In this document: piece by piece, positions 6,501-45,553 of the stretch | Position numbering within the stretch: position 1 is the first letter of the stretch | Layout of the letters: each line of letters starts with the position of its first letter | NCBI GenBank assembly: GCA_964480265.1 | Contig: CAYZNY010000006.1 | Coordinates: 1,219 to 65,218 of the forward strand | Direction: 5' to 3' | Length of the DNA stretch: 64,000 bases | From: an uncultured Candidatus Saccharibacteria bacterium | Lineage (GTDB): Bacteria > Patescibacteriota > Saccharimonadia > Saccharimonadales > Saccharimonadaceae | Notes under the pieces: generated by a model | What the model saw: only the letters and a program-made list of their open reading frames with translations | The model's database searches: none | Told to the model about the DNA's origin: nothing | Program-made: the position numbers and the translations under genes

Positions 6501-6733
6501 CTTGATTTCGCATTTGCATTTGCATTACTATTTACTTTGTAATATCGCCATGATACACCATAATGCCCACACCATGTTACTTTACTTACTGCGGTCGTAC
6601 ATTTACTTGTGCTGCTTGCAGTATCCTCGCCATCACTTTCGTAATCGCTTGCAAAAACCGCACTGGACATTGCCAAACATCCCAACACAATACCAGAGAT
6701 CAATAACGGGATTATCTTTCTACGTGCTAACAT
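3524..6733 (-). CDS. large secreted protein (1069 aa), function unknown; candidate pilus-associated adhesin
   Basis: It has a Sec-type signal peptide, MLARRKIIPLLISGIVLGCLAMSSAVFA|SD. Its start abuts the stop of the upstream gene, and the PilX-like gene follows it in the same operon. Confidence 0.75.
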   Translation of the reverse strand: MLARRKIIPLLISGIVLGCLAMSSAVFASDYESDGEDTASSTSKCTTAVSKVTWCGHYGVSWRYYKVNSNANANAKSRCSAIGAKGYFVLAYEKVKKGSSASSWSFVGEQAFNPGVQVHQVKPTYAGGSGSYNVIESLAGTEKWNDVKAQHDKAKELNLIGPDDAAWGNTTWFCSDYTDETKGKGYVTANSGVSVNGVSGSKTGADVGPDSTGFGKNNVMTITVETSNSSVSGNMWHNQYYQNEDSSWDETKKRWSDRSFRLDLWYDIADGDVDACGGRDLCSTDWEIEPWKKKKEHTNVGNKPYTLQLDNVGSTATKCQTMTIEPLRFVFTSADGGDIVKETGRAHTSVCVVAKRIDKPAEPKDEFWATSSVQVPNASAQLGGYDPGKQTSDKDAAVGLKVSTDSDSLQFTLSHNMDFDWTDWTRNMWRYWDGCISTNADGSCNGDWVYVGSQTNLSYELTGDTGGVVENNNDEDATYKAGTDKDTDNGGEEVSTHTYTISGMEAGKTYKVCHKIKYSPKTYTTPITESLIWTGPWSIGPRWDYGTPQANNDSEDSEACIEITRPADPPEGGDPDPYGPKNGGDSASDIMYAGEHTGIGWKVAAKSVPTRRVKDYSAIGFVVRDDVTGASVVNAGGHVSSDPCNYFRTKSGGRLISFGGANCAEFSGDGLSIEENADGIAGKATQLVPTPNNSEQDAFTQQLDIAVPDNVGGKYCNSYGYKWGYWWGVAKASDASGLTDDVATWTYVPGKDYWTNYSATCRTIAKKPSFAVWNGSLFSGAGVSSSTAPRHNEANNGQPTKLNNDSEKTTYGSWAENIVAAQGEVSRFASSGAYGAGIPGLVSGNQWDMAWQTITNIGLVANGTTLGNSGINYNSSYSTRLSAYLKSHATNADQEEKSYDGAVGVGDTRILYFNPGGENGTLTISSNVELANTSGKTIYEMPQVVIYVDGNVEIAPSVTRLDAWIIANGNINTCSDWVEKTTETQSVYRNQNTTCDNRLQINGPVVAKSVTLNRTYGADNLAYGISSFKNTSSEVFNLSALSYLWSFAQAGRYDSSYTDAYARELAPRY

Positions 6734-7501
6734 TTAGTCTCCCTCATGTAATTTAATATCTGCATCCTCTTCCAATTGTCGGTATTTTTCTGCCATCTCT
6801 GCGTCGCCTAAGGCAATGTAGGATGACTTAATAGCGGCATACACCAAGCTCTGCTCTTTTGAGCTAAGCGCATTAAAATCAAGTTGCTGAGATACATCTA
6901 TTACTTCGTCATACTCGCTATGTTGAAACAGGGTGATTAGCTCTGCTGCCTGGATGGCGTTCCTCTGCTTCTGGTCATTACTCGCCGATACTGCGTTCTC
7001 TGTTGCCGCCCTAACGCTGCCTATACCTTGCGCTCCAGAATTTTCTCCCGCCGATGCCTCATTATCTATTCCCGAAATTGACCGCAACTGAGTTAAATAT
7101 TTTTCAACAGCACTATTATCCCCATCGCTATCCCCCTCATAACTATTGCCAAGAGTTAATTCCGTTGGTTTTTTCTCATGATCTTTCGGCGATACTAGCA
7201 TCATAATCATCCATATGGTAGCCCCCATAATTGCAATGGTCAACACGCCCAAAACAATCCAAAACCACAATGGCCGCTTCGTTCTTACTCTTGAACCATT
7301 TTGAGGGAATTGTTTTGTCTTTTTAGCCTCTTTATCTTTTTTGTCTTTAACTTTCTTGACTTTTTCTGATTTGTGTTTTTTGCCCGAGCCAATCTTGCTA
7401 GCATCAAAACCAGCGTTTATAGCCGAAGTAGGCTTCACCGGTTGCACCGGGGCCTGATTCTGCACCTGCGGTGCAGTTGCACCCTTTCCCTCCTCGTTCA
7501 T
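6734..7501 (-). CDS. bitopic membrane protein: K-rich disordered N-terminus, one TM helix, helical/TPR-like C-terminal domain
   Basis: The TM segment is LWFWIVLGVLTIAIMGATIWMIMMLV. The C-terminus is similar by eye to 13039..13731. It is the first gene of its operon, with TGcTATAAT 7 nt upstream of the ATG (leaderless-type). Confidence 0.7.
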   Translation of the reverse strand: MNEEGKGATAPQVQNQAPVQPVKPTSAINAGFDASKIGSGKKHKSEKVKKVKDKKDKEAKKTKQFPQNGSRVRTKRPLWFWIVLGVLTIAIMGATIWMIMMLVSPKDHEKKPTELTLGNSYEGDSDGDNSAVEKYLTQLRSISGIDNEASAGENSGAQGIGSVRAATENAVSASNDQKQRNAIQAAELITLFQHSEYDEVIDVSQQLDFNALSSKEQSLVYAAIKSSYIALGDAEMAEKYRQLEEDADIKLHEGD

Positions 7502-7612
7502 GCTTATGATTATAGCATACTTTAACTCATTTTTATAATTTCACAAAGAATTGGCTCGCATTTCTGCGAGCCGTTACTTAAGGTGCTTTATTATGGGGGG
7601 ACATTTAAGTCA

Positions 7613-8806
7613 TCACCATTCCGATTTGGGAATATTTAACTTATAGACTATAATCTCATTGCCCATAGATACTCCATCAAATGTTTCATAGACCGCTTTT
7701 CTGCGTTCAATTAAACTAAATTGTTGCAACTGTTGTGTTTTCTTGATTTTCTTGATTGGCTTGACCTTTTTGTAAGGGCGACGATAAATTACATCCCTAT
7801 CCCAAACAAAAAAACCGACGTAATCATTATACGGTTCAAGTGCCCCATTCTCCAAGATTGCATAGCGTATGCCACCACTACGTGTCCTAACTTTAATCCT
7901 TGCTACTTCGCTCACTGCTCCCGAACCCTTCAAATGATCAAACTCACCAATGTTAAAGGCGGCGCATATTTTACATATTGCTATGGCATAGTCTAAGCAA
8001 TCACCATATGCTTTCTTTTTGAATAATGCCTTAAACGATTCATTCTCATCATTCCTTGAATCGGAGTGCCGCATTGACGCCCCCTCCCAGCTTTTACCGT
8101 CTGACCCTATTTCCAGCACTATTCTCGCCTTCATAGCACTTGATAAATTCCGGAATTTTGTTCCATGAAGGTACTTGCTCAATTCTTTCAAATTAGCAAT
8201 TGTCGTTTGCGTATCCAAGTATAGCTGTGCCCTGCTTTTATAATTAGCTTCATCCACCATAACCGTTCCAGACTGTAAGCCAGCGGCTAGATTTTCCGAT
8301 TCCTTCAATAGCTTGTCAATATACGCTCTAAACCCTTTGTATTCTTGTTCTACAAATTTAATGCCATAAATATACTCCTGGCAATGGAATTTCTTGACTA
8401 TGAATGTTGTATATTTCCCATTCTTCTTAGGATTATTATTCGTTCCATTCACATCAAAGTAAAGCGAATCTTTCATGCATATCGGAAACACATCAAACCC
8501 CACATCAGTCTGCTTAGCAACTTTCTTAGTCAGCTTCTGAAACTTCTTATAGAAGCTTTTCTCGCCGCCCTTGAACCGGATCGTAAAAGCTTTACCTTTC
8601 AAAAGCTGCTGATGAACCTTTTTGGCGGTCTTCTGATCAATCTTTTTGACCGTTATAACCTTGGCTTTCGCCTTTGCCTCCACCTCTGTCTGCTGGCAAA
8701 CTACGCTGCCTACCAAAATAAGTCCAAAGGTTAACAGTAATCCAGCCGCCATTGTTAATATGGGGCCAAGAAACAACTTGCTACAAAAATCATTTTTCAC
8801 CTTCAT
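7613..8806 (-). CDS. membrane-anchored transglutaminase-like cysteine peptidase domain protein
   Basis: There is an N-terminal signal anchor. The motif AYGDCLDYAIA fits the G-x-C-x-x-(F/Y)-A nucleophile context of transglutaminase-like proteins. GGAGGG lies upstream of the ATG. The gene sits in a visibly AT-rich segment. Confidence 0.5.
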   Translation of the reverse strand: MKVKNDFCSKLFLGPILTMAAGLLLTFGLILVGSVVCQQTEVEAKAKAKVITVKKIDQKTAKKVHQQLLKGKAFTIRFKGGEKSFYKKFQKLTKKVAKQTDVGFDVFPICMKDSLYFDVNGTNNNPKKNGKYTTFIVKKFHCQEYIYGIKFVEQEYKGFRAYIDKLLKESENLAAGLQSGTVMVDEANYKSRAQLYLDTQTTIANLKELSKYLHGTKFRNLSSAMKARIVLEIGSDGKSWEGASMRHSDSRNDENESFKALFKKKAYGDCLDYAIAICKICAAFNIGEFDHLKGSGAVSEVARIKVRTRSGGIRYAILENGALEPYNDYVGFFVWDRDVIYRRPYKKVKPIKKIKKTQQLQQFSLIERRKAVYETFDGVSMGNEIIVYKLNIPKSEW

Positions 8807-8966: not shown

Positions 8967-8995
8967 ATAGTTGAGGGGCGAAGCCCCTCAACTAT
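8967..8995 (-). terminator. 13-bp perfect hairpin overlapping the stop codon of cassette a
   Basis: ATAGTTGAGGGGC-gaa-GCCCCTCAACTAT on the plus strand. It lies between cassette a and the promoter of the next gene. Confidence 0.5.
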
Positions 8996-9279
8996 TTCGC
9001 AACACAGCGGACGGCAAAACCTTGGCCGCGGATAGAGTAGGACTGTGAATCGACGTAGACACCATTGGAAAAGGAAAAGAATAAGAGATTGTTTGCAGAT
9101 TCAGATGAATATGCCGAGTGTGACCAGTAGTACCCTTCTGAGCCTAGTGCGCTTAATGATCCGATATTGTAATAATACTTACCTCCTAACTCAAACCCGA
9201 GCGGCGCGCTACGTAACTGGGTAGAACCGGAGAAGAAGTTAGAAATGTTGTAGTGCGCCGCTCGAAAAACATATCCCGT
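8992..9279 (-). pseudogene. cassette a: start-less C-terminal half of a Fibrobacter-succinogenes-major-paralogous-domain (FISUMP, lectin-like) protein
   Basis: The open frame between stops reads TGYVFRAAHYNISNFFSGSTQLRSAPLGFELGGKYYYNIGSLSALGSEGYYWSHSAYSSESANNLLFFSFSNGVYVDSQSYSIRGQGFAVRCVAK*. It contains no ATG, GTG or TTG. The YWS...G(F/L)(A/S)VRCV ending is the hallmark of that domain family. Confidence 0.7.
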
Positions 9280-9319: not shown

Positions 9320-9593
9320 GATAGGACGACAGAGCGCCATGCTACACCGCTCTACGAGAAACTTTAACAGCGGGGAGAAAGGAAGGAGTATGGGGCTCAC
9401 ACTAACCATACGCGTATGGAAATTACGCATAAAAATTAGTTTAGGCAAAGCCCAAACTAATAAAACCCTATCTATATCCTAGCACGCTAATCGCAGACGG
9501 TCAACACCATGTGGGCCGATAATCTACGATTATCGGCCCATCTGCGAAGTGAAACAATGCTAGTGGTGTAATAGCTCTGTCGTCCAGTTTTTT
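9320..9593 (+). ncRNA. unclassified structured ncRNA, unit 1 (about 262-nt core at 9324-9585)
   Basis: The 5' GGACGACAGAGC pairs with the 3' GCTCTGTCGTCC, and a T6 run follows. Internal hairpins include a perfect 12-bp stem, GGGCCGATAATC/GATTATCGGCCC. It is paralogous to unit 2, with compensatory changes between the two. Confidence 0.55.
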
Positions 9594-9600
9594 GATTTAC

Positions 9601-9807
9601 CCTCTCAACTTTCTCCGTACGGGGCACTACTATCGTGCAAATGGTAATATTAATGCTCGTACTCATCATGCTAATTGGTGGTCCGATACAAATATATCTG
9701 CATTTAGTGCATACAACTTGAATACCCGACCAGAGTCTATTGGAAATCAAAGTAGTAGCAACCGTGGTTACGGTTTTGCCATCCGCTGTGTAGTACGGGA
9801 GGGGTGA
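9601..9807 (+). pseudogene. cassette b: start-less FISUMP-like C-terminal fragment (second subfamily)
   Basis: PLNFLRTGHYYRANGNINARTHHANWWSDTNISAFSAYNLNTRPESIGNQSSSNRGYGFAIRCVVREG*. It lies between the 3' ends of the two ncRNA units. The only upstream in-frame start is a TTG inside the RNA terminator, with no RBS. Confidence 0.65.
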
Positions 9808-9840
9808 AATTCGTAGGAAACGGATGAAGAAAATCAGATT

Positions 9841-10106
9841 AAAAATCATGGAACGACAGAGCTACTACATCGTCGGCATCACCTCAACTTCGCGAGGAGT
9901 CTGACCGAAGGTCTTGACTCCTCGCGATCAGCATGCTAGGATGTAAATAGGTTGTTGATTGGTTTAGGCTTTGCCTAAACCAATTTTTACGCTAAGACAT
10001 AGCTTGCCTAGGCGCAGGGTAAGCTGAGCTTCCATTCCTATCTCTCCTTTCTCCCCGCTGTTAAAGTTTCTCGTAGAGCGTGTAGCATGGATGCTCTGTC
10101 GTCCTG
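9841..10106 (-). ncRNA. unclassified structured ncRNA, unit 2 (about 254-nt core at 10104-9851), paralogue of unit 1
   Basis: On the minus strand GGACGACAGAGC...GCTCTGTCGTTC closes the unit and is followed by a T-run. The first 65 nt or so are nearly identical to unit 1. The internal hairpin CGCGAGGAGTC...GACTCCTCGCG replaces the unit 1 hairpin at the same position. Confidence 0.55.
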
Positions 10107-10112
10107 ATCATC

Positions 10113-10141
10113 ATTATACCTCGTGCACCGACACAAAACAA
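10113..10141 (-). promoter_or_regulatory. candidate promoter of ncRNA unit 2
   Basis: On the minus strand: TTGTTT, 17 nt, TATAAT. The -10 ends 8 nt before the closing stem. Confidence 0.5.
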
Positions 10142-10322: not shown

Positions 10323-11318
10323 CTACGTCCCCGCCGTGCGCGCCGCAAAATTAAACTTATTGATACCACAATAGGTGAATTCTGACCCGACAGTTAGCAG
10401 CTCGCCGTTATCTTCGGTATAATCTTGTACATCACAATAATCACCCGAGCGCTCGATGTTCACATTACCCCGGTCCGTACCCAGGATAAATGTACCGGTC
10501 ATGAAGGTGCGCAGCGTCACTGCATCCTGCGAAATCGGAAAGATCGTCAACTCATAAAGCTGCAAATTGACATCCGACGCCGTGAGTAGTCCCTCGGTCG
10601 GGTCCGGGATGCGATTTGCACTACCATTAGCAAGCTGTGTAATGTCAACTTCAAGCGTGCCACCCCCGTCGACTTCCATCATATTCTTTCTATAACCTTC
10701 GTCTGGGCTGACCAACGCTGAACAAACTCGATAAGTCGGATCATAAACCTGTGCCAACCGAAACTTCCCCGACGACGGATCTTCTGGCAGATTCCCCTCC
10801 GAGCCATCGGATTTTAGATATTTGAGCGCTATTGCCACTTTCTTGTTTGCCGTATGCTCCAAACCATAGTATGTATTCCAAATATAAGAATAGTTGCCCG
10901 TGCAAAATACTCCACCCAGTTGCACGTTGTGATTTTCTTTTTCTGCCCGCCTAGTATTGTCAGAATAAGTACCGGTGCGCTCTTGGAAAATAAACTTATT
11001 CGCAAAATCAGCTTTACATTCATCAATCGCCGCCGCTGCCGCGGTCGAGCTGGCCTTAAAATAACTATTACAGAGACTAGTCGTATCGACCGATGGCGCC
11101 GCATTGATATTCGCCGTGAACTCGTCAATCAACCCGCGGCCAGTACTATTGACGGATTTTAGCGTCAGCCCCTTTTGATAAATTTGCGTCACCATACCGG
11201 CTACCACCGTAATCGAAATCAGCAAAGTCGCGATAAACGCTGTCGCTAGCGAAAACTCTACAATCGTAAAACCTTGCAAACTTTGCTCCATCAAAGGTTT
11301 TTTCTTTTTTCTAAGCAT
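10323..11318 (-). CDS. type IV pilin-like protein (pseudopilin/minor pilin)
   Basis: It has a prepilin-type N-terminal cleavage/methylation motif, SLQG|FTIVEFSLATAFIATLLISITVV. It overlaps the upstream gene by 8 nt. Confidence 0.8.
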   Translation of the reverse strand: MLRKKKKPLMEQSLQGFTIVEFSLATAFIATLLISITVVAGMVTQIYQKGLTLKSVNSTGRGLIDEFTANINAAPSVDTTSLCNSYFKASSTAAAAAIDECKADFANKFIFQERTGTYSDNTRRAEKENHNVQLGGVFCTGNYSYIWNTYYGLEHTANKKVAIALKYLKSDGSEGNLPEDPSSGKFRLAQVYDPTYRVCSALVSPDEGYRKNMMEVDGGGTLEVDITQLANGSANRIPDPTEGLLTASDVNLQLYELTIFPISQDAVTLRTFMTGTFILGTDRGNVNIERSGDYCDVQDYTEDNGELLTVGSEFTYCGINKFNFAARTAGT

Positions 11319-12174
11319 CTTTTGCCTCCGGATTATAAAGTCGAATTACCGAGTCGATCGAGGTAGGCGCATTGCTATTCGACCCAAACCAACACGTCTG
11401 AATATAAAAATCATAAAAATCATATTTGGTGTGAGTAGAATCATACTTTCCACCCACGGCAACTACCCAAATCCCCTCGGCATATTTGAGATAATCAAAC
11501 AATTGGGAAGACGATAGGTTATTCACCGAATTATTATCTTCGCCACTGCTAGCGTCTTTGGTATAAATCAACCTCGCTCCGAGCGTTGGCTCGCGAAATG
11601 CCTCCGGGTGCTCGCTGATCGAGATATAGACATTTTCGGAAAGTTCGTTTTTATTGGTGCTCGCATTCAGCTTGTCCTTGCCGATTTTGCGTGTATTCAG
11701 GACGAATGCCCTGTTTTTGGTCAATAAGTTAGAACCGGCTGGCTCATAATAATCCTTACAACTTCCCAAAATCCCCTCCGGCATACTAAAATCGTCGCTC
11801 ATGGCAGCGCCTTCCGTCCGCGGGGCCATGGCATTTTCTGCAATTTTTTTCCAAAGCGAAGCAAACTGCTGGCATTTCTCACCCGGATTATTTTTAACCT
11901 CTTGTGAATCGCAAGTCGGTAAAGTCAATTCCGAGACATACGAGCTATGAATGAAACGTAGCGCCTCAGCCTGGCCGTTCAGCTCGTTTCTGGCGGTGAC
12001 CAGTTCGAGCGAGCGTTCGCCGCTTGATACACCAGCATTCATCATTGAAATCGATATCACCGCTACCATCGAGAAAACCGCAATCGCGAACATTACCTCG
12101 ATCAGCGTATCGCCACGCTTAGCCCCAGAATTCTGAACCACCCGCCCGAGGATATTTTGCCATTTTTTACTCAT
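11311..12174 (-). CDS. type IV pilin-like protein (variant prepilin signal)
   Basis: KRG|DTLIEVMFAIAVFSMVAVISI is a class III signal-like motif with a conserved Glu at +5. It overlaps the upstream gene by 8 nt. Confidence 0.7.
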   Translation of the reverse strand: MSKKWQNILGRVVQNSGAKRGDTLIEVMFAIAVFSMVAVISISMMNAGVSSGERSLELVTARNELNGQAEALRFIHSSYVSELTLPTCDSQEVKNNPGEKCQQFASLWKKIAENAMAPRTEGAAMSDDFSMPEGILGSCKDYYEPAGSNLLTKNRAFVLNTRKIGKDKLNASTNKNELSENVYISISEHPEAFREPTLGARLIYTKDASSGEDNNSVNNLSSSQLFDYLKYAEGIWVVAVGGKYDSTHTKYDFYDFYIQTCWFGSNSNAPTSIDSVIRLYNPEAKDA

Positions 12175-13042
12175 TACACTGGTTCCCCTCCACGGTATTT
12201 CCCCAGGCGTCTTTTTCTAACCAATCGTCCTGGATATCGGTACTGAGCGTGCTGATTGCGCTGGTATTATGCCCATCTTTAGCGATCCGTACTTCGCGAT
12301 AGCGTGTGGCATTTTCCGAGGTTACGCAAATTCCAACATTCTGATAATAAAATCGCTTTTCTTTTTCAATCACTGCTTCGTTGTCGGCTTTTGCAAACTC
12401 GGACAAGCCAGAATTAAATTTTAAACTTGCATTATAATTGCCGTTACCACATTCATCCCTCAAATTATAAGTTTGTTCAGTATAAACTGTATGAATTGCC
12501 CCCGAGGTCGGCGTCCGGGCAATAATCACTGTCCCGGTGAAAGGCTTCCCCTGGTCTGGCTTTGTCTTAGTCAAATTCGATTGCCAGAGCGGCTCATAAT
12601 AGCTCACGCTCGACACCCCACCTCCGGAGTTTTCTCCAAGCTTCTGGCCGCAGTATAATTGGAGGTTTACATTTGCTAGTTCTTTGATAAAACCGCCGTC
12701 GATACTTTCTGGAATTTTTGCATCGCCGATAAGAATTGCACTATACACTTTGCGGTCGTCATCGTCGTTATCGTAATCATAGCCAAAAACTAGCGCTTTG
12801 CCATAGATGGCGTAACGCTGAGAATTTCCGGCTCCCAGCGACTCTGGGCTGAGCACCTCGCTATACTCCTGGCGCAAATACTCTGCAAACGAACGCACCG
12901 AATCCGAATAACGTTGCGACGCAATCGACGCAAAAGTCCCGCCTAGCAGCCCAACTAGTAGCATACCTGTCAGTCCAAGTACAAGCATAACCTCGATAAT
13001 TGTGAAGCCGGATTTTTCTGGTTCTTCGATATGTTTTGTCAT
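12167..13042 (-). CDS. type IV pilin-like protein
   Basis: EKSG|FTIIEVMLVLGLTGMLLVGLLGG is a prepilin motif. It overlaps the upstream gene by 4 nt. Confidence 0.8.
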   Translation of the reverse strand: MTKHIEEPEKSGFTIIEVMLVLGLTGMLLVGLLGGTFASIASQRYSDSVRSFAEYLRQEYSEVLSPESLGAGNSQRYAIYGKALVFGYDYDNDDDDRKVYSAILIGDAKIPESIDGGFIKELANVNLQLYCGQKLGENSGGGVSSVSYYEPLWQSNLTKTKPDQGKPFTGTVIIARTPTSGAIHTVYTEQTYNLRDECGNGNYNASLKFNSGLSEFAKADNEAVIEKEKRFYYQNVGICVTSENATRYREVRIAKDGHNTSAISTLSTDIQDDWLEKDAWGNTVEGNQCNE

Positions 13043-13731
13043 CTCGCCTCCAACGCCTTCTCAGCCTCGTGTGTTAGACGAGCATATTCGTTCGCAAGAT
13101 CAAAATTTGCCAAGGCTTGGTGGGCCGTCGAAAGCGCTGCATAATAACGCGCCCGCTCCGGCAAATCCAATTCTTCGGCCACAAGACCACTCAAAAGTTC
13201 TAGCGCACGATCATAGTTACCGTTAGCATTCATAAGTTCTATCTCGGTCAGGCGTACCTGAGCGGCATAATTCTTATCCCCACCAGCGCCAATTTTATCC
13301 TGAACAGCCTGGCTGACGGCCGCCACCGAATTCCCCGATTCAAGATTTTGCTGATAAATTTCCTGCAAAGTTTGGCGATATTCATCGGAATTGAGCTCCT
13401 CGGTGGTTTCGGCAATGATTGGTGATTCGGTCGGAGCCCCATTGACCGGGATTTCGGGGACTTCCACGATATTTGCAAGCCGAATTTCGCCCCAAATGCC
13501 AAAACCCAACACCACCAGGACAATCAAAACAACCGCCGCCCAAACCATGCCTTCGAGCACCTTTGACGAGCGTGTGTTGACAGATTTTGGACGTTTCGTG
13601 GCAGCGACCGGAGTTTGCTCAGTATCCTTAGTTCTATTAGCATTTTCAGCATTTTTGGCACCTCCAACCTCAGCAAGCTGTTTTGCTCGCTTGGCAGACT
13701 CCACCGGCAAGTCCTCCACGCCCTTTTCCAT
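13039..13731 (-). CDS. bitopic membrane protein with a TPR-like C-terminal domain; paralogue-like of 6734..7501
   Basis: It has a charged N-terminus and the TM segment MVWAAVVLIVLVVLGFGIWG. The helical C-terminus reads NGNYDRALELLSGL...YYAALSTAHQALANFDLANEYARL. It is the first gene of the pseudopilin operon, with TGcTAAAAT 6 nt upstream of the ATG. Confidence 0.7.
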   Translation of the reverse strand: MEKGVEDLPVESAKRAKQLAEVGGAKNAENANRTKDTEQTPVAATKRPKSVNTRSSKVLEGMVWAAVVLIVLVVLGFGIWGEIRLANIVEVPEIPVNGAPTESPIIAETTEELNSDEYRQTLQEIYQQNLESGNSVAAVSQAVQDKIGAGGDKNYAAQVRLTEIELMNANGNYDRALELLSGLVAEELDLPERARYYAALSTAHQALANFDLANEYARLTHEAEKALEAR

Positions 13732-14247: not shown

Positions 14248-14269
14248 CTCTCAACTTTCTCCGTATGGG
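14248..14269. repeat. isolated 22-nt copy of the cassette b/e 5' flank (CTCTCAACTTTCTCCGTATGGG)
   Basis: It matches 9602-9623 at 21/22 positions. It also matches the reverse complement of 27134-27155. It lies 5 nt beyond the CCA end of tRNA-Met. Confidence 0.8.
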
Positions 14270-24124: not shown

Positions 24125-24381
24125 ACTGACGCACCCCCTTCCTTGTTCATGTGAATGTGATCGTTTTGTTTTTTATAATCACTACCAGGGGGTACCAACC
24201 CCCAGTAGGAGTTGGCGAACCAACTACCAACCAGCCAATCCGGCTGATCGTTAGACACGATATATATCAACAGATACAACCTCGCAGTTACCATTATGGC
24301 AACGGTATTGTATCTGAGATGATTCGATTGTTAAGTGGACCTCTGGCCGGGCCGCTCCCGTAGCTCTTCCAGACTGCTTCC

Positions 24382-24410
24382 ATTGTAGCACACATCGTCA
24401 AAAAAGTCAA
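24382..24410 (-). promoter_or_regulatory. consensus sigma70 promoter for 22139..24124
   Basis: On the minus strand: TTGACT, 17 nt, TACAAT. It leaves a leader of about 250 nt. Confidence 0.65.
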
Positions 24411-24672
24411 TAGTTTTTCTATATTTTAGGCATAAAAACAATAGAAATAAGCGTTATAGGTATAAAACAGAGGTGAAAAAGCCGCGCCCTAGCATTTTGA
24501 AATGCTTATGTATAGGGGTGATATAAACTTGACCGTTATAACAGTAAAATGCTTTTGCTAAAAACTTTGTCGATTTCTTGTCAAGAACATGACATTTTGG
24601 GCATGAAAAAGGCCCACCCGATATCCAGGTAAGCCTTCCCAACGTGCTAAGGTGTCAAATTTCGTGGTTTCA

Positions 24673-25899: not shown

Positions 25900-25996
25900 A
25901 GAAACACCTTCCTTTCTGTAAATGTGCCACCCCCTGTGGGGCGGCATTTGGTTTTCGTTGATTGACACCTGCCGCCCAAAATGGGCCTCTGCTTCC

Positions 25997-26025
25997 ATTG
26001 TATCACAGATTACCAAAAATGTCAA
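25997..26025 (-). promoter_or_regulatory. consensus sigma70 promoter for 24673..25899
   Basis: On the minus strand: TTGACA, 17 nt, TACAAT. Confidence 0.65.
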
Positions 26026-26098
26026 TAGTGTAAAATGTATCTTGATTACCTTGCAAGAATATTACAATACCAAATCAAAACTGTTTTCATACGAATAG

Positions 26099-26407
26099 TT
26101 ATATAAAGGCTGGACCTTACCTTCCTCCGCCGATTATGCGAATCTTATCACCACTACCTACAATATCCCTAACTCCTCCTCCGGTTCTACCCAGCTACGT
26201 AGCGCGCCGCTCGGGTTTGAGTATACGGGTAGTTATGTGTATTTCAGCGGTTCATTAACTCAGATCGATATAGCTGGTAGATATTGGTCTCGTTCAATAC
26301 ATTCTGATAGCGAAGCTTACAATCTAATCTTTGAGTCTGCTGATGTTTCTCCACGGTCCTATTATCGTCGTGGAGATGGTTTTGCCGTCCGCTGTGTTGC
26401 GAGATAG
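26099..26407 (+). pseudogene. cassette c: start-less FISUMP-like fragment (longest copy, begins at the GW.LP core)
   Basis: The open frame after a TAG stop reads LYKGWTLPSSADYANLITTTYNIPNSSSGSTQLRSAPLGFEYTGSYVYFSGSLTQIDIAGRYWSRSIHSDSEAYNLIFESADVSPRSYYRRGDGFAVRCVAR*. There is no usable start codon and no RBS. Confidence 0.7.
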
Positions 26408-26484
26408 TTGAGGGAGGAGACATCACGACCCGTTATTAGACGAATAGCAGCTTTTGAAAGAAAGTATGTTATAATGAGAGAGTT

Positions 26485-26577
26485 GGAGGGTTACCCAAGT
26501 GGCTGAAGGGGACGGTTTGCTAAATCGTTAGTCTGGGGAGACCTGGAGCGGGAGTTCGAATCTCCCACCCTCCGCCA
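26485..26577 (+). tRNA. tRNA-Ser(GCT), class II, CCA encoded
   Basis: GGAGGGTTACCCAAGTGGCTGAAGGGGACGGTTTGCTAAATCGT + long variable arm + GCGGGAGTTCGAATCTCCCACCCTCCGCCA. Confidence 0.9.
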
Positions 26578-26590
26578 TAGGGGATTTTTC

Positions 26591-26611
26591 GACCTTTTGA
26601 AGGTCTTTTTT
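26591..26611 (+). terminator. intrinsic terminator of tRNA-Ser
   Basis: A GACCTT/AAGGTC hairpin followed by T6. Confidence 0.6.
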
Positions 26612-26842
26612 GATGGTTCTACCCAGTTACGTGGCGCGCCGCTCGGGTTTGAGTATACTGGCATTTATAACTACGATGGCTCAGTGAGTACTGTCGCCTA
26701 CGGGTACTATTGGTCGCGCTCGGCAAGATCAGATATAGCTACCTATAACTTCTACTTTGGGTCTAGTTTTGTAAATCCGCAGAGTAGTTACTTCCGTGGT
26801 AACGGTTTTGCCGTCCGCTGTGGGGTGGAACGTAAGGAATAA
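26612..26842 (+). pseudogene. cassette d: start-less FISUMP-like fragment that begins exactly at the conserved head
   Basis: DGSTQLRGAPLGFEYTGIYNYDGSVSTVAYGYYWSRSARSDIATYNFYFGSSFVNPQSSYFRGNGFAVRCGVERKE*. The listed TTG start lies inside the tRNA terminator. Confidence 0.65.
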
Positions 26843-26949
26843 CCAAGTTCGCTTTGAACATTGAAAGACACCACCGAGGCCTGCCCGTGACCGAGCTTTG
26901 GTGTAGCGTCAGGGTATGTTCAAAAAGAACTATCCTATCCCCTATTCCT

Positions 26950-27182
26950 TCACCCCTCCCATACTACACAGCGGATGGCAAAACCGTGTCCGCAGTAATC
27001 GTTACCCTGAGGGTCGACATTCGTCAGGTTCGTATGCAGGTAGCGACCGTACGCAGCCGAATAGCTAGCATCCGACCACCAGAGGCCACCTACGGTACGA
27101 TTGAAGATGTAGCCATTGGAACGACCGTAGAGGCCCGTACGGAGAAAGTTGAGAGCGGCGCGCTACGTAGCTGGATAGAACC
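26950..27182 (-). pseudogene. cassette e: FISUMP-like fragment with head and body in different frames
   Basis: The body reads LNFLRTGLYGRSNGYIFNRTVGGLWWSDASYSAAYGRYLHTNLTNVDPQGNDYCGHGFAIRCVVWEG*. The head (GSIQLRSAP) is joined to it out of frame, because the junction is 2 nt longer than in a, c and d. Confidence 0.65.
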
Positions 27183-27202
27183 GGAGGAGATTTACCGTTA
27201 GA

Positions 27203-28557: not shown

Positions 28558-29310
28558 AAAACTACCCTGGGGTGCCTTGTCGAGTCGAAATGGAACCAAA
28601 TTGCCTCAGAGTTTTTCAGAGTTAAACATATTATCTCTGTTTCTCCTCTATCGGCATATTGCCATCGATGACAAGCTACCTACCGCGTTACCCCTATGCT
28701 TATATAAGATGTAGGCCTTATCTTCTACACCTTATGACTGATTATAACACGAATAATTGAGTAAAAGCAAAAAATAGAGAATAGGTGAATATCCCCCTTG
28801 TTGCCTTGGAACTTATACTGATAGGTCTCGTTGTGACACTAACTCTAACACACTTAGTGGATATAGATTAAACAGACATAGACCGATACACTCAAGAGAG
28901 ATAACTGATACGATTTCAGTTTGATCAAGACCAACCAAAGAGAAGTGGTAGAGAAATAGAGTACACTAATACTAGCTCGCGCTAAGATAGCAGATACTCA
29001 ATCACTGGGGAGTTAAGATCCTAGTTCATACACTCGATATCTCATCAAGCTTCTGATATTCTACCCCTAGTGTAGCATGATATCGGCGAGGTGTTTTTTA
29101 TTTTTGGGGACTTTTTTGCTGATTTTTGGTTGTTTTGGATGATTTCGATGAAGCAAAACTAATGACCCCTATCGTTATATAGAGATATGCCAGTTCCTTG
29201 CAGACCAAATGCGACAACCTATAAAAATGAAATTGGTCTGATACTATAAGAGATGGAGGTCTAGTTGCCTCCTATTGTATAAATATTTATAAGAACACGG
29301 AGGAATTTTG

Positions 29311-29724
29311 ATGTTCAAAGATATAATTAACCAAATAGTAAGAGATTATCCCGAAGAGCAGCTATTATCAGCAATAGAAAATCTCGACGGAGAGGAATGG
29401 ACGACGGATTATAGAACGGCTATTATAGAAAGCGATAGCAACGGTTCTTTTGGTGATGCGTCAAAGATTAAGGATAAATATGATGCAGTCTACAATTTTC
29501 AACCAGAGATTCATCCATCTGGAATTAACTTTGTTATAAAAACACATAGCTCTGATTTTTGGGTTGCTATGCCTTTGCTTCCGTTTGTGAGCTGCTTTGG
29601 GCTGAATAATATTCTGTATTCTGGAGAAGGCTTTGACTGGCAATTCAAACTAATCGAGGAAACTGCTAGAATGTGTGGTGTTGAACCGAGCAATGATATT
29701 ATTCGGCATATGTATATGGCTTAG
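29311..29724 (+). CDS. hypothetical protein (island cargo)
   Basis: The ATG has GGAGG 8 nt upstream. No motif was recognised. Confidence 0.55.
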   Translation: MFKDIINQIVRDYPEEQLLSAIENLDGEEWTTDYRTAIIESDSNGSFGDASKIKDKYDAVYNFQPEIHPSGINFVIKTHSSDFWVAMPLLPFVSCFGLNNILYSGEGFDWQFKLIEETARMCGVEPSNDIIRHMYMA

Positions 29725-29852
29725 TGGCTAATTAAATGGGTTTTGCCGTATTATCGTATACTTTTAGTCTCTAGACTAGCCATTCTCTCTATATCATTTC
29801 TCTTTGACAACCAAAAAATCATCAGCAGATAAAATGGTATAGTAAAACTATT

Positions 29853-30419
29853 ATGGCTAGACCGTCAAAATACAACAAAGAACTAGTAGCGCAAATTGTC
29901 GACTATATCGCTGATGGGCTAACTATCCGTGATACTTGCTATGGGGCTGGGATATCTGAGGACACTTTTTGGAGATGGAATCGAGAAAAGCTAGAGTTTG
30001 CTGAAGTTATCAAAGAAGCTACCAATCGCCAAAAGTGGACTAGCGAAGCTTTGAAGCGTACGAGCGAGTACCGAAGGTACACGAGAAAGGCTCATATCTA
30101 TTCTAGAAAGACGCTGAAGCGTCAGAAGCCTGTCCGTGTTCGTATCGCATCAGAAAAGCCCTTAGAACGAGCCCTAGAAGCCTCAGAGGGCATAATTAGC
30201 CAAAACACTGGTAGACGGCAGCCAAGTCCAAGAAATATCCTTCCGACTCGTTCTGAGGCTCCGATTAATGCTTTTGGTGAATTGGTATTCTCTAGGCCCT
30301 ACTACAACCAAACTACCGACCGAGTTGAATGGATTGAGAAAGAAACCTACGGTAGATATGTCCTCCACTCGTGTAGGGTGGAAGTGTGGGAGGAATCGTT
30401 AGCAAAGAATGAGGGATAG
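29853..30419 (+). CDS. HTH DNA-binding protein resembling phage terminase small subunits
   Basis: The N-terminus MARPSKYNKELVAQIVDYIADGLTIRDTCYGAGISEDTFWRWNREKLEFAEVIKEA follows the RPSKY...I...G.S...C...GIS..TF..W...EF pattern common in phage small terminase/HTH proteins. Confidence 0.4.
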   Translation: MARPSKYNKELVAQIVDYIADGLTIRDTCYGAGISEDTFWRWNREKLEFAEVIKEATNRQKWTSEALKRTSEYRRYTRKAHIYSRKTLKRQKPVRVRIASEKPLERALEASEGIISQNTGRRQPSPRNILPTRSEAPINAFGELVFSRPYYNQTTDRVEWIEKETYGRYVLHSCRVEVWEESLAKNEG

Positions 30420-30463
30420 CCCAGTATTAGACTATCCCTCACAAGTACTGCAAATAGCTAAAA

Positions 30464-31861
30464 CTATTTGTTATTCTTTTTGCGTAGAATTTGCCTTCGA
30501 GCCACAATAGTAGCACCAGCAGCAGTTAGAACCGATACAACACCAGCAGCAATTTTAATGCCAGCTGTTGCAGCAGATGAGCCGTCACTCTTGGCGATAA
30601 CACCACTGTTTGGGGCTTTGCCTTTTGGATATTCAACAATACCGTAGACACTAAAGTGGTCAGTCTCAAAGGTTAGCCAACCGTCACTACTGACTTTAAC
30701 ACCCTTGATGGCTTGGGCTTGGTCGGTGAGATATTCGCCATTCATAGCCATCGGAACATAATAGACGACAAAATCGCTATTTACATTCATATTGCTTGGC
30801 AGTTTGATAGATACTTGGACTTTGCCAGTATCAGTGACGACATTGTTTAGGCTATCACGGATGTAGATATCGTAGAAGGCTTGGTTGAGACTATTCTTGA
30901 AGTTATTGCCAGTTAGTTTGAGCAAATCATCAGCAACTTTATCGACATTCAATGTGTAGTTGATATTGATGTTGACACCACTGACTTTGACATTCTTGTC
31001 GCTACTCTCGATAGTATTACTTGGTTTATTGTCCGTATTGGCATTATCACCAGTTGGAGGAGTAGTAATATCCCCACCGTTGTCACCAAATGGGTCGGTA
31101 CTGAGGATGTAGTTTACTTTGAAGTTGGGGTCAATTTGGGTAGCAGCACAGACGAGCTCATAAGCAGCGTATTTGTAGTCAAAGCTGCCGTCATCTTGTG
31201 TCACACTTGGGTCTAGAGATTTTGATAACTCGAATATTGATTCATACTGATAGAAAATAGACTCACCAAAGACAGTCTTATTATAGTGGTCAATAACTCT
31301 ATTCCGTAAAGTGCCCAAGTCAGAGGTGTCAGAAACATTTATTGATGGATATGCTGCTTTGATAGCATTCTTGTAGGTGGTTAGCATCTCTGCATAAGAT
31401 TTCTCTGCTTTTGATACTGCGGCTTGTAATGCCGTATCTGTGTCATAACCGTCTGTTTTTTTGACCTCTTCTATAACGGATTCATAAGAGCGTCCATCGA
31501 AATCATACCAATCCTTGATGGCACCAGCTGCTTTTGCTTCGGTTATTAGAGTGCTGGTTATTGTAGAGAGCGTTTCACCCATTGTATTGTCAGCATTTTG
31601 GAATTTAGCAAAAGCGTCATATCCATCCACTTTTTTAGCAGAGTTGAGAATATCGGTAAAATTCCCCTTGCTAATTTGCACATTATCCCACGATGACGGC
31701 ATTGGTACATTGGGGCTACAAGCAGCACCTCCTCCAGCATACACAGCTCCATTCCCCATCATTAGATTTGTGGCGATTGGAGCCAGCGACAAAGTCGCAC
31801 AAAGTGCTCCAGTACCAATCGCAGCACAGATGCTACGAGCGTTAAAGTTGATTTTTGGCAT
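30464..31861 (-). CDS. secreted, C-terminally anchored surface protein (island cargo)
   Basis: It has a signal peptide and a C-terminal TM helix plus a basic tail (AAGVVSVLTAAGATIVARRQILRKKNNK), preceded by KAPNSG, which may be a degenerate sortase motif. GGGAGG lies upstream of the ATG. Confidence 0.7.
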   Translation of the reverse strand: MPKINFNARSICAAIGTGALCATLSLAPIATNLMMGNGAVYAGGGAACSPNVPMPSSWDNVQISKGNFTDILNSAKKVDGYDAFAKFQNADNTMGETLSTITSTLITEAKAAGAIKDWYDFDGRSYESVIEEVKKTDGYDTDTALQAAVSKAEKSYAEMLTTYKNAIKAAYPSINVSDTSDLGTLRNRVIDHYNKTVFGESIFYQYESIFELSKSLDPSVTQDDGSFDYKYAAYELVCAATQIDPNFKVNYILSTDPFGDNGGDITTPPTGDNANTDNKPSNTIESSDKNVKVSGVNININYTLNVDKVADDLLKLTGNNFKNSLNQAFYDIYIRDSLNNVVTDTGKVQVSIKLPSNMNVNSDFVVYYVPMAMNGEYLTDQAQAIKGVKVSSDGWLTFETDHFSVYGIVEYPKGKAPNSGVIAKSDGSSAATAGIKIAAGVVSVLTAAGATIVARRQILRKKNNK

Positions 31862-31915
31862 AATGTTTGCCTCCCTTGTTTTGGTTAAGTTAACTTATCC
31901 CCACAAGGTATCCAA

Positions 31916-32074
31916 AAACAAAAAGGACACCGTGCATTGGGTGTTTAGAGTCCAATTAGCAAGTAGGCTTTCGCCCCCTTGGCACGATGTCCTAGTTTGG
32001 GGCGAAAAGCACTGGTATTGAGTGTTTTCTTACCTACAGCTGCTAATTGATTGACTCTAAACAGTTTTATTATA
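31916..32074 (-). promoter_or_regulatory. extended -10 promoter plus structured leader (or sRNA) of about 147 nt with a terminator-like end, upstream of 30464..31861
   Basis: On the minus strand, TGtTATAAT is at 32069-32077. The outer stems are GTTTAGAGTC/GACTCTAAAC (10 bp) and AATTAGC/GCTAATT (7 bp). The inner stems are GTAGG/CCTAC and CTTTCGCCCC/GGGGCGAAAG. Then comes ACACC/GGTGT followed by TTTTTGTTTTT. Confidence 0.45.
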
Positions 32075-32298
32075 ACACAAAAACAAGTGGGAATACGGAA
32101 AATGCGTTGCTGGTAATAGGGGTAGGATAGTGTGAAATACACAAAGCGTACGAAAATAAAAAATCCTCTAGCGATTGCGTGCTAGTATAAAACTATACAA
32201 GACTTCGTCTGACTAATAGGCTAACAGACGGACAATCTTAATGACATCTATTGGTGACGCTCACCGGCATAACAACTCTTAGCCATAGGTGATTGCAG

Positions 32299-32526
32299 AT
32301 GTCAAAGGATATTTTCAGCCACTCAAAAACAGACAAGGCAAAACAAAAACAGTCAATTGAGGATCTCCTCGATAAGCCAATCATTAGTGTTAAGGAGGCG
32401 AGAAAGATTATTGGCAAAGAGGCCTCAAGTCGGTTCTCAGACGAGGAGCTTGGGTATATTATTGGTCAGATGAACTTTCTTGCCAACAAGATGCTCGACG
32501 CAAGTTTGGTTCCACAAAAACGATAA
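32299..32526 (+). CDS. small hypothetical protein immediately upstream of the recombinase
   Basis: It is 75 aa from the first ATG and lies 22 nt before the recombinase gene. A role as a regulator or directionality factor is speculation. Confidence 0.4.
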   Translation: MSKDIFSHSKTDKAKQKQSIEDLLDKPIISVKEARKIIGKEASSRFSDEELGYIIGQMNFLANKMLDASLVPQKR

Positions 32527-32548
32527 CTAATGGTATTATGGAGATTAT

Positions 32549-34231
32549 ATGGACGGCATTAGAAAAAAGGCCTATGGTTACAGACGCGTTTCTACCGTAG
32601 GGCAAGTAGACGGAGCTTCTCTGGGAACACAGACAGAGAAAATAACAAGTTATGCAGAAGCAAACAATATCGAAATCGTGGATTGGTTTGAGGATCCAGG
32701 TTATTCAGCGAAAGATGCTAATAGGCCAGACCTTCAAAGAATGCTTGAGTCAATCAAGAAACACAAGGGTGAAGTTGACTTCGTTATCATTCACGACAGC
32801 ACACGGTTATCCAGAAACCTAGCTTCTTTTTATGTCGATATTTGGCCCACGCTGCACAAGAACGGTGTACGGCTCTTATCAGCAACAGAGAATTACGGCG
32901 ACGAAAAAGACCCGACTGGCGACATTCCAATGATTTTCGGTGTTCTTACTGGTCAAATTGACAATAAGAATAAATCTAATTCTACTAAAAATAATATGGA
33001 TGACCTTTTTAGCAACAGTGGCTGGTGGATGGGTGGCAGAACGCCACTAGGATATAGGATTGAACGCATATTCGTTGAAGGAAGGCAGCGCGATGGTCAT
33101 CAGAAGTCCCACGCCATACTGGTGCCAGACAACACCAATGGTCTTGCAGATAAAATTGCTTTTTTGCTTAACCGTTTTTCCGAGGGTGATTTGTTATCAT
33201 CGGATCTACTTCAAATCGCCCATAAAATAGATATCCGCGGCTTCAAAGGTGAACTGCTCGCGCAAAGCACTCTAGATGGCATCTTAACAAACGAAATCTA
33301 TGCTGGATATCATACATCAAAAACGATGGCCAACCAGCAAAGGGTTAAAATGAGGTTCGGAGGCATAATATCGTTAGAGACATACGAGAAAAATCAAAGA
33401 ATTATAAATAAAAATGGCAAACCCCACGAAAAGAGTAATGAATTGGAATATCCACTCAGCAAAACTGCTTGTTGCGCTATTTGTGGCGCAATGATGACCG
33501 ACGAGGAAAGAGAAGTAAAAACCACAAAAGGCAAGCTTCCATACCTTCGTTATAGCGCACCAAAAAGTGGTTCCGGCAAGCACACTCCACGCTATAGTTG
33601 TAAATGTAGAGGACACGGATCTATTCGTGCTTCCGATGCCCATCAGATTTTTGAATGCTATCTCAAGCAAATTACGCCAACCAAAGAAATGGTAAAGTTA
33701 TTCAAAGAGATTGTGAGACGCACGGCCCTCAAAAAACTCGGCAATACCAATAAACAAATTAGCGAGCTTGAAGCAAAAAGTAAAGAGATTCGGAATGATA
33801 AAGAAAATGCTCTTAAGAAGCTTTTAAAGAACGATATGGGGCTCGACGACGGTGAACAGCGAGAGCTAATGGGGTCATATGATGCCGATCGTAGTAGGAT
33901 TGAGTCTGAACTCGCAGATCTGAAGCAAATCCAGTTATTGAGAGAAGCCGACATTGAGTATGTCTGCAACTTTATGAGTATGCCAGCTAAACTTTGGCGA
34001 GATGGCGATTTAGAGACTAAGCAAGCTATTCAAAAGATGATTTTTCCAAATGGCATATATTTTGACCTCAAGAATAAAAAGTGTGGAACCAACGAAATTA
34101 GCCCTCTGTTCTCTGTTACAGACATCAAAAAAGCACCTTCTGGTGCAGATTTGAATGCTCTGGGGTGGGATATCGGAATTGAACCGACGACCTTCTGGAC
34201 CACAATCAGACGCTCTAACCAACTGAGCTAA
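32549..34231 (+). CDS. large serine recombinase (resolvase-type catalytic domain + recombinase domain + zinc ribbon + coiled coil)
   Basis: The N-terminus is YGYRRVSTVGQVDGASLGTQ...DPGYSAKDANRPDLQRML...FVIIHDSTRLSRN, with the catalytic Ser in RVST. Cys clusters are CCAICG...YSCKCRGH. The last 35 codons or so are antisense to the tRNA-His terminator and tRNA-His. Confidence 0.85.
   Translation: MDGIRKKAYGYRRVSTVGQVDGASLGTQTEKITSYAEANNIEIVDWFEDPGYSAKDANRPDLQRMLESIKKHKGEVDFVIIHDSTRLSRNLASFYVDIWPTLHKNGVRLLSATENYGDEKDPTGDIPMIFGVLTGQIDNKNKSNSTKNNMDDLFSNSGWWMGGRTPLGYRIERIFVEGRQRDGHQKSHAILVPDNTNGLADKIAFLLNRFSEGDLLSSDLLQIAHKIDIRGFKGELLAQSTLDGILTNEIYAGYHTSKTMANQQRVKMRFGGIISLETYEKNQRIINKNGKPHEKSNELEYPLSKTACCAICGAMMTDEEREVKTTKGKLPYLRYSAPKSGSGKHTPRYSCKCRGHGSIRASDAHQIFECYLKQITPTKEMVKLFKEIVRRTALKKLGNTNKQISELEAKSKEIRNDKENALKKLLKNDMGLDDGEQRELMGSYDADRSRIESELADLKQIQLLREADIEYVCNFMSMPAKLWRDGDLETKQAIQKMIFPNGIYFDLKNKKCGTNEISPLFSVTDIKKAPSGADLNALGWDIGIEPTTFWTTIRRSNQLS
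34127..34146 (-). terminator. intrinsic terminator of tRNA-His, inside the recombinase ORF
   Basis: On the minus strand: GCACC-agaa-GGTGC followed by T6, 15 nt after the tRNA CCA end. Confidence 0.55.
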
Positions 34232-37056: not shown

Positions 37057-37173
37057 ACAAATTCCCCCTTTTTTTATATTTTTTGAGAAAATTTGCTGCA
37101 AACTTTTAATTTACCTAAGGCCCTACGCCTTAGGTATCGAGCCCGCAGCGTAATTTATTAGCCTTATGCTTTC

Positions 37174-37202
37174 ATTGTAGCATAGATTGGCAAAAAAGTC
37201 AA
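37174..37202 (-). promoter_or_regulatory. consensus sigma70 promoter for 36643..37056
   Basis: On the minus strand: TTGACT, 17 nt, TACAAT. Confidence 0.6.
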
Positions 37203-37223
37203 TAGTTTAAGCATATTTTATGG

Positions 37224-45511: not shown

Positions 45512-45524
45512 AATCTATCTCTCT

Positions 45525-45553
45525 ATTGTATCACAGATAGCTGATTTTGTCAA
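45525..45553 (-). promoter_or_regulatory. consensus sigma70 promoter for 44714..45511
   Basis: On the minus strand: TTGACA, 17 nt, TACAAT. It overlaps the 3' end of the upstream gene. Confidence 0.6.

Follow-up and report, generated by a model that had tools for sequence, protein, structure and literature searches.

Nucleotide-identical ends on diverged FISUMP-tip cassettes in a Saccharibacteria contig: a possible family of recombining silent copies

What keeps a 39-nt sequence unchanged at several places in one genome when the coding sequence that follows it is highly diverged? The question is raised by a 64,000-nt stretch of the genome of an uncultured Candidatus Saccharibacteria bacterium (contig CAYZNY010000006.1), which we analyzed as a whole and refer to as the window. 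A preliminary description had noticed the repeated 39-mer, which we call the head, and had pointed to a function at the level of DNA or RNA, such as a recombination site, a crossover hotspot or a protein-binding site, with ongoing gene conversion as the alternative. We found that the head opens a family of cassettes that encode the tip of a lectin-like surface domain (FISUMP), and that a second short block, a 19-nt tail, closes them. We tentatively suggest, with somewhat less than even confidence, that head and tail are the 5' and 3' homology blocks of a silent FISUMP-tip cassette family, kept identical by recombination between copies and used as crossover points. Among the explanations offered earlier, ongoing gene conversion (concerted evolution) fits best.

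Results

The head opens truncated FISUMP cassettes

Three full matches to the head, none with a mismatch to a pattern that allows Y or R at two positions, lie at 26183-26221 and 26615-26653 on the plus strand and at 9190-9228 on the minus strand. A partial copy on the minus strand (27153-27182) holds the first 30 nt with one mismatch. All four copies had been reported before; the chance expectation is zero matches (100 shuffles), and a sliding 16-mer search found no further partial copies in the window. We denote the cassettes that they open A (head at 26183), B (26615), C (27182) and D (9228). The identical block reaches 14 nt farther upstream in A and D (CTAACTYCTYCTCC) and 7 nt farther in C (CTCCTCC, to 27189).

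Every copy of the head opens a 5'-truncated, start-less C-terminal fragment of a FISUMP domain (Fib_succ_major, C-type-lectin-like), comprising its last 70-100 residues. Together with a head-less cassette (E) that was absent from the preliminary description, the window holds five cassettes, with reading frames that end in ...RGxGFA[VI]RC... and then a stop. We found no open reading frame (ORF) with a start codon and no constant N-terminal ORF that reads into any head in the window, and the N-terminal half of the FISUMP domain is absent from the 64 kb. Because no unit has an upstream gene part, the units are 5'-truncated, promoter-less cassettes, each repeating the tip of a lectin-like surface domain. 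PF09603 is matched by four of them, at positions 126-187 of 187 (also TIGR02145). With only one third of the domain present, the scores are low (E = 3.5e-4 to 0.04, all below the gathering score); the longer homologues P0018 and P0093 pass the Pfam threshold (37.7 and 35.3 bits versus a cut-off of 33.9).

Aligned at the DNA level, seven cassettes (five of the window and two of a related locus, L001) have a common layout: a conserved head, then ~150 nt of body with indels and 52-70% identity, then a conserved 19-nt tail. The tail, GGTTTTGCCRTCCGCTGTG (codons GFA[VI]RC), is an addition to the earlier description. It is found on all five cassettes of the window, is identical at synonymous sites and is free of adenine. 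Three cassettes are of one type (type-1; A, B and D) and two of another (type-2; C and E, with a body that reads NFLRTG...VREG), in which the tail identity carries on to GTAGTAYGGGAGGGGTGA. Also new is a second conserved head, the type-2 head CTCTCAACTTTCTCCGTAYGGG, found at 9602, at 27155 on the minus strand and at 14248.

Cassette A (26099-26407, plus strand) has its head at 26183-26221 (extended, 26169-26221) and its tail at 26378-26396, and reads LYKGWTLPSSADYANLITTTYNIPNSSS-GSTQLRSAPLGFE-...GFAVRCVAR followed by a stop; its frame opens at 26099 (LYKGWTLPSS...), with no in-frame ATG, GTG or TTG start before 26237. Cassette B (26615-26842, plus strand; head 26615-26653, tail 26804-26822) begins 38 nt past a tRNA-Ser gene, directly behind the tRNA terminator. 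Cassette C (26950-27189, minus strand; tail 26967-26985) is a hybrid in which 30 nt of the type-1 head (27153-27182, with CTCCTCC to 27189) are fused at CCGCTC/TCAAC to a type-2 body with its own type-2 head (27134-27155). The join is 2 nt out of frame, and the frame of the body reads a TAG inside the head. Cassette D (8992-9242, minus strand) has an extended head at 9190-9242 and a tail at 9003-9021. A 13-bp G+C-rich hairpin (8967-8995, minus strand; z = -6.8) overlaps its stop codon; a strong hairpin follows D only. All cassettes have the adenine-free, G+C-rich tail. Cassette E (9598-9807, plus strand) is type-2 and Asn-rich, without a type-1 head (type-2 head 9602-9623, tail 9772-9790). The third copy of the type-2 head, an isolated 22 nt at 14248-14269 on the plus strand, lies 5 nt from the 3' end of tRNA-Met and looks like the remnant of a rearrangement.

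Synonymous sites are fixed in the ends and saturated in the bodies

We compared codons among the four type-1 cassettes, limiting the analysis to columns with the same amino acid in all four. Codons varied in one of 12 head columns and in none of six tail columns, versus 11 of 13 body columns (Fisher p = 1e-5 for head and tail against body). Third-position C<->T differences were seen in 0/39 pairs in the head and 0/36 in the tail (0/75 for the pooled ends), versus 43/78 in the body. The lack of synonymous drift that had been noted in the head is therefore correct and significant. It was also right that protein constraint alone would not produce it: body codons are saturated at conserved residues, and in cassette C the head and the body stand in different frames, with an in-frame TAG.

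The C<->T changes reflect ordinary divergence, because adenine mutagenesis cannot produce them. The five bodies have all remained open and retained their scaffold residues (G, Y, W and RGxGFA[VI]RC) although their synonymous sites are saturated, and thus evolved as coding sequence. At synonymous sites the bodies are old, yet amino-acid selection still acts on them; both ends are held nucleotide-identical. Body composition is distinct from that of other genes, with 70% NNY codons versus 51% (p = 2e-9), 4.7% K/E/Q/M versus 19.6%, and no stop codons. The bodies probably descend from tips diversified by a diversity-generating retroelement (DGR).

The palindrome in the head is most likely incidental

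The head had been described as containing a 10-bp palindrome (GCTACGTAGC) followed by GCGCGC. The palindrome is perfect in A (26183) and C (27182) and imperfect in B and D; both variable positions of the head fall inside it and break its symmetry in these two copies. Ten-bp palindromes are not rare in the window (71 observed versus 62 expected), and heads A, B and C fold no better than shuffles (z = +0.6, +0.4 and -0.5). Heads that encode the same peptide elsewhere lack the palindrome (GGTTCTACTAAGCTCAGACAG... in the OOIH01 assembly and GGATCTACTAAGTTGCGTTCT... in OFGG contigs). With two of four copies perfect, folding at the level of shuffles and absence from other genomes, we rejected the palindrome, or a secondary structure, as the functional element, and found no support for palindrome plus GCGCGC as a conserved DNA signal. 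We regard the palindrome as a by-product of codon choice for Leu-Arg-Ser.

We noted one other potential structure around the head. An inverted copy (13/14) of its right half, GTAGCGCGCCGCTC, lies at 9249-9262 on the minus strand, 36 nt upstream of the head of D, and pairs with 9199-9212 in a 14-bp long-range stem (z = -3.5). The type-1 cassette of L001 has the same feature (6543-6556 with 6500-6513, z = -3.1); the spacing to the head is 30-36 nt over the two cases. Heads A, B and C have no inverted upstream copy of GTAGCGCGCCGCTC.

Ends are identical within genomes and drift between them

An inventory of the head sequence found it outside the window in L001 only. This was the single match to a 27-mer of the head among 185,579 species genomes, and a 22-nt core of the head had no match in JGI metagenomes or IMG/VR. 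Look-ups of exact protein sequences for two window genes next to the cassettes, P0001 and P0042 returned no record. L001, which was deposited as an uncultured Clostridia metagenome-assembled genome, has segments in common with the window (81-94% identity) and two cassettes in tandem, one with the exact 39-mer of D; some homologues are named Candidatus Saccharibacteria.

A more distant relative, L002, is colinear with 20.3-46 kb of the window at 75-77% identity and has one cassette, at the position of A. Its head is 30/39 identical to the window head, which equals the genome-wide 75-77%; three of the differences are synonymous third positions, and its tail differs at synonymous sites as well. 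The peptide GST[KQ]LR[SQ][AS]PL.F is encoded by other codons elsewhere, with identity falling from 30/39 in L002 to 25/39 in the OFGG loci and 23/39 in OOIH01. Synonymous divergence between relatives is thus normal, an outcome that the preliminary description had named as speaking against a DNA-level function, and the head is not conserved as a DNA signal across relatives.

Within genomes the situation is different. In L006, a 17-nt head and a 36-nt tail are common to all three cassettes, the cassettes of L032 likewise share their own ends, and in OOIH01 four cassettes are identical over >70 nt ahead of the variable part. Identical ends within genomes that drift between genomes suggest concerted evolution inside each lineage and not a conserved signal. 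A truncated cassette has been retained at the same syntenic site in two species ~24% diverged (the window and L002), and the number of cassettes at the locus varies among related species.

A tRNA-Ser segment is inverted between two heads

The preliminary description had proposed that structural-variant breakpoints might fall in the head, and one reversed segment does lie between two inverted heads. The gene for tRNA-Ser(gct) (26485-26577) is on the plus strand, opposite to its orthologue in L002 and L026. The order in L002 and L026 is cassette(+), tRNA-Ser(-), tRNA-Gly(-), tRNA-His(-), and in the window it is A(+), tRNA-Ser(+), B(+), C(-), followed at a distance by tRNA-Gly(-) and tRNA-His(-). 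By blastn, everything is colinear with L002 save 26460-26577, which aligns in reverse to 9790-9673 (95.8%). We dropped L026 as a third species for the orientation of tRNA-Ser, as it is the same species as L002.

The heads form repeats in inverted orientation that bound C-terminal coding segments (26176-26212 and 26615-26644 on the plus strand, 27153-27189 and 9190-9242 on the minus strand). The most similar pair is that of A and C, with arms of 37 nt (26176-26212 and 27153-27189; 36/37 identical, 97% complementary) that lie 940 nt apart. The 940-bp segment between them (26213-27152) comprises the body of A, tRNA-Ser, cassette B and the body of C. If this interval is flipped back, tRNA-Ser regains the orientation that it has in L002, and the cassette becomes the kind found there, with a type-1 head joined to a type-2 body (P0005 is built in this way). 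Judged from these alignments, a crossover between the inverted heads appears to have flipped the tRNA-Ser segment, and the cassette ends seem to be real crossover points, in line with the earlier reading of the head as a site of recombination.

Other loci also point to rearrangement. A third species (L010, L011 and L013) has another arrangement again, on contigs that all end inside a cassette tail; contigs of the same species as the window (L015 and L016) end before the cassette locus. Hybrid cassettes occur elsewhere (P0005 and P0138), and the junctions of hybrids are at microhomologies (CTC in C, CAAC in L001). The L001 junction belongs to a join with the promoter of another gene: in L001 (6745-6841) and L006 (~3760-3800), the promoter and first six codons (ATGAATGAGGAGGGAAA...) of a homologue of the window gene 6734-7501 are joined to a type-2 cassette. 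The corresponding region of the window is 7475-7571. The join is out of frame, in L001 has the 4-nt microhomology, and in both relatives has a homologue of the 397-aa gene 7613-8806 upstream of it.

Related loci carry DGRs or a small tyrosine recombinase

A profile of the cassettes matched 435 proteins (in 90% clusters), nearly all of 65-160 aa, and 5,900 in an exhaustive search. Among the larger set are giant proteins in which as many as 13 stretches match, and also proteins of 500-700 aa that have a signal peptide and match once, at the C-terminus. Full-length family genes exist elsewhere (P0144, P0229, P0253 and the DGR target of L007).

Several relatives (L007-L009 and L017-L019) have canonical DGRs, with reverse transcriptase (RT), accessory gene, FISUMP target and template repeat (TR) together, and every mismatch between TR and variable repeat (VR) falls at a TR adenine. 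In the active DGRs, TR and VR become identical only ~17 nt ahead of the first variable adenine (NFLRTG/SFSRSG codons), downstream of the position of the 39-mer. One DGR (identical TR ORF, P0006) has a 563-aa target in one assembly (L007 12840-14531) and a truncated target of 103 aa in another (L009 6405-6716). The truncated target (P0010, P0016, P0021 and P0025) is found on many contigs with differing VR sequences; this DGR seems to keep diversifying a 5'-truncated fragment. The OOIH01 assembly (L020-L023, L034 and L036) has at least seven type-1-like cassettes, in which 130 of 202 aligned columns are identical and variation is limited to particular codons, as in DGRs. They are arrayed with type-2 cassettes in both orientations, with no RT in the fetched flanks.

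We compared 56 metagenomic loci that were fetched by cassette similarity only. A tyrosine recombinase of ~190 aa, consisting of the catalytic domain only and of FimB/FimE size, lies directly upstream of the tandem cassettes of L006 (Pfam Phage_integrase, E = 3.8e-25; "tyrosine-type DNA invertase," 1.9e-8, below the cut-off). Homologues with ~90% identity are found in 12 of the 56 loci, usually 200-500 nt upstream of a cassette, and the remaining flanking genes differ; the relatives with the enzyme beside cassettes are L006, L029-33, L035, L040/41/55/57 and L049. A recombinase near other copies, which had been suggested as something to look for, was thus found. As far as we searched, the literature has no description of cassette arrays that recurrently adjoin a small tyrosine recombinase. 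Some of the recombinase-bearing loci share other genes with the window, and they differ from each other by inversions ending near cassettes. RT was present in two of the 56 loci, and the N-terminal half of FISUMP was not found within 10 kb of the cassettes in 54 of them.

Other features of the window

Many genes of the window have no Pfam family, which suggests a gut bacterium with a small genome that resembles Saccharibacteria. The only known RNA families in the window are five tRNAs. The sole recombinase is a 560-aa large serine recombinase (32549-34231; Resolvase and Recombinase domains) that overlaps the end of tRNA-His. It lies at the edge of an insertion of ~5.6 kb (28575-34160) that separates tRNA-Gly from tRNA-His; in L002, L026 and L010 the two tRNA genes are direct neighbours. 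The insertion is also present in a 97%-identical strain (L016), carries an ORF resembling a terminase small subunit or helix-turn-helix protein (29853-30419), and is probably an integrated mobile element.

Cassette E is flanked by imperfect inverted repeats of ~270 nt (9325-9597 and 9815-10120), which have a 36-nt perfect core (9348-9383 and 10045-10080). Each arm has an outward-facing promoter-like site, and the left arm has a terminator-like hairpin; there is no Rfam match. Such an arrangement recalls an invertible element or a long hairpin RNA. An operon of four genes resembling type IV pilins (10323-13731, minus strand; N-terminal GFT[IL][IV]E, one N_methyl match) ends ~90 nt from this inverted-repeat region. 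We considered a PilV-like shufflon acting on this operon and found no support for it; the last pilin-like gene has neither a FISUMP end nor a head, and in L027 pilins and cassettes are several kb apart.

A motif of ~34 nt recurs at 24379-24412, 25994-26027, 37171-37204, 45522-45555 and 56577-56610 and is also conserved in L002. Read on the minus strand, it is a near-consensus promoter (TTGACA-17-TACAAT, extended TG) upstream of minus-strand genes. The ORF 25-804 on the plus strand has a TaqI-like C-terminal specificity domain (PF12950, E = 1.6e-19) and may be part of a restriction-modification gene at the edge of the window.

Discussion

How could recombination between copies keep the ends identical? 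In the mechanism that we propose, cassettes would exchange through the short G+C-rich head and tail blocks, by gene conversion and by reciprocal exchange. Concerted evolution would be limited to blocks with enough identity left, and the bodies would remain different. Where two heads stand in inverted orientation, a crossover would invert the DNA between them, as in the 940-bp tRNA-Ser segment. The exchange would be driven by homology rather than by a dedicated recombinase, and we infer that the cassettes act as donors for a full-length gene outside the window.

Silent-cassette gene-conversion systems are known from Neisseria (pilE/pilS) and Borrelia (vlsE/vls) and from the donor sites of Mycoplasma and Treponema. 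Like these, the window carries copies of the variable part of a surface protein that lack promoters and are 5'-truncated; they are clustered, lie in both orientations and include hybrids, and short nucleotide-identical blocks flank their diverged segments. In contrast to these systems, no expression locus was found in the window, the encoded part is a FISUMP/C-type-lectin tip and not a pilin or lipoprotein, the codons bear a DGR-like signature, and recombination into an expressed gene was not observed.

Could a dedicated enzyme act on the ends instead? The head, and perhaps the tail, might be the target of a site-specific recombinase encoded outside the window that swaps C-terminal tips by multiple inversion, an explanation that we regard as unlikely but as having a real claim. 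Shufflons (Rci/sfx, acting on the C-terminal segments of PilV; PMC5430464, PMC11852207) and intragenic invertons (10.1101/2023.03.11.532203) likewise have short inverted repeats at the junction of constant and variable parts, with the DNA between them inverted. The heads of the window occupy such junctions, as sfx and gix do, and one was kept though out of frame; cassettes occur in both orientations, and the recombinase-bearing loci of relatives differ by inversions ending near cassettes. The FimB/FimE-sized enzyme directly upstream of the L006 array, with its ~90% identical homologues in 12 loci whose other neighbours differ, is the strongest hint in this direction. However, no tyrosine recombinase was found in the 64 kb (tblastn with the L006-type enzyme, E > 1; Pfam scan of window ORFs), and no constant N-terminal ORF enters any cassette. 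Gin/Cin/Min systems, which switch tail fibres, have a small serine invertase next to the segment and sites of ~26 bp. No small invertase was found in the window, whose only recombinase is the large serine type that belongs to the tRNA-Gly/tRNA-His insertion, 5.4 kb from the nearest head. The head is not conserved between genomes although the tyrosine recombinase is ~90% conserved, its dyad symmetry is limited to an imperfect 10-mer, the hybrid junctions at CTC and CAAC share no single fixed core, and alternative orientations are seen between species only, unlike in shufflons and invertons.

Might the ends instead be what mutagenic homing leaves untouched? The cassettes would then be the VRs of a DGR with its RT and TR elsewhere in the genome, and head and tail the adenine-poor ends rewritten unchanged at each homing event; we consider this improbable. 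DGRs with C-type-lectin-fold targets of the Fib_succ_major/DUF1566 class are a close known parallel (PMC4159848, PMC11661182, PMC8144416), Fib_succ_major being a reported target class (PMC4159848, PMC11661182), and relatives carry canonical DGRs on exactly this domain and part. The cassettes have conserved ends, a variable middle rich in NNY codons and in Asn, Ser, Tyr and Gly and poor in K/E/Q/M, no stops in the bodies, an adenine-free 3' block and a head core with five adenines in 39 nt; there is a strong hairpin at the end of D, and seven OOIH01 cassettes vary in a codon-limited, DGR-like manner with no RT nearby. Against this, no RT (tblastn with the L007 RTs; no RVT_1 in the Pfam scan of window ORFs) and no TR were found in the window. 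Adenine accounts for 14-39% of mismatches over ordered pairs of window, L001 and L002 cassettes, and no ordered pair of window cassettes has the adenine-concentrated mismatches of a TR/VR relation, a pattern that our positive controls (L007 and L017) do show. The bodies differ by indels and by many third-position C<->T changes, only ~1/3 of body columns are invariant, the upstream gene part is missing, and the 39-mer lies upstream of where TR/VR identity starts in the active DGRs examined. Least probable in our view is functionless decay, in which the cassettes are remnants of duplicated or rearranged FISUMP genes with ends conserved by chance of history and strong amino-acid constraint. The missing starts and upstream gene parts, the frameshifted cassette, the 22-nt remnant beside tRNA-Met, the differing cassette numbers between related species and the junctions at microhomologies would all fit, but the codon statistics exclude protein constraint as the cause, saturated synonymous sites exclude recent duplication of whole cassettes, all bodies are open with their scaffold residues kept, and a truncated cassette persists at the same syntenic site in two species ~24% diverged. 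We also rejected an integron-like reading (a recombinase with a cassette array), as no cassette is a complete ORF and nothing resembling attC was seen.

Exchange between silent copies, which we favour, has several points against it. Ordinary conversion tracts usually exceed 39-53 nt and would tend to make the bodies alike as well. Because only the ends are identical, the proposal needs either selection for different bodies or very short conversion patches; the 3' border of the head is very sharp, with 100% identity through GAG and ~55-60% after it. No expression locus, meaning a full-length gene that has the head in its reading frame, was found in the window or within 10 kb of cassettes in 54 of the 56 related loci. 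The conserved small tyrosine recombinase that adjoins cassettes in several relatives favours a site-specific mechanism. As to the inversion, a tail-to-tail crossover of A and C would flip the tRNA too, with ends in conserved cassette blocks either way, and the change is seen only between two species at ~76% identity, not as a polymorphism.

The observations might also be combined. In a two-tier archive, which we offer as a rather speculative and improbable scheme, tips diversified by a DGR would be stored as silent copies. By way of head and tail, these would afterwards be exchanged into a full-length FISUMP adhesin gene, or inverted, by a FimB/E-sized tyrosine recombinase like the one beside such arrays in relatives, in a gut bacterium with a small genome and probably an episymbiotic life.

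In practical terms, the 39-mer should be read as a homology block shared by the members of a multicopy family rather than as a conserved palindromic signal. Should the cassettes serve as donors for an expressed adhesin, they would provide a recombination-based change of the ligand-binding tip, atop or instead of the DGR hypermutation of relatives. If true, this would bear on how these bacteria track changing host or partner surfaces.

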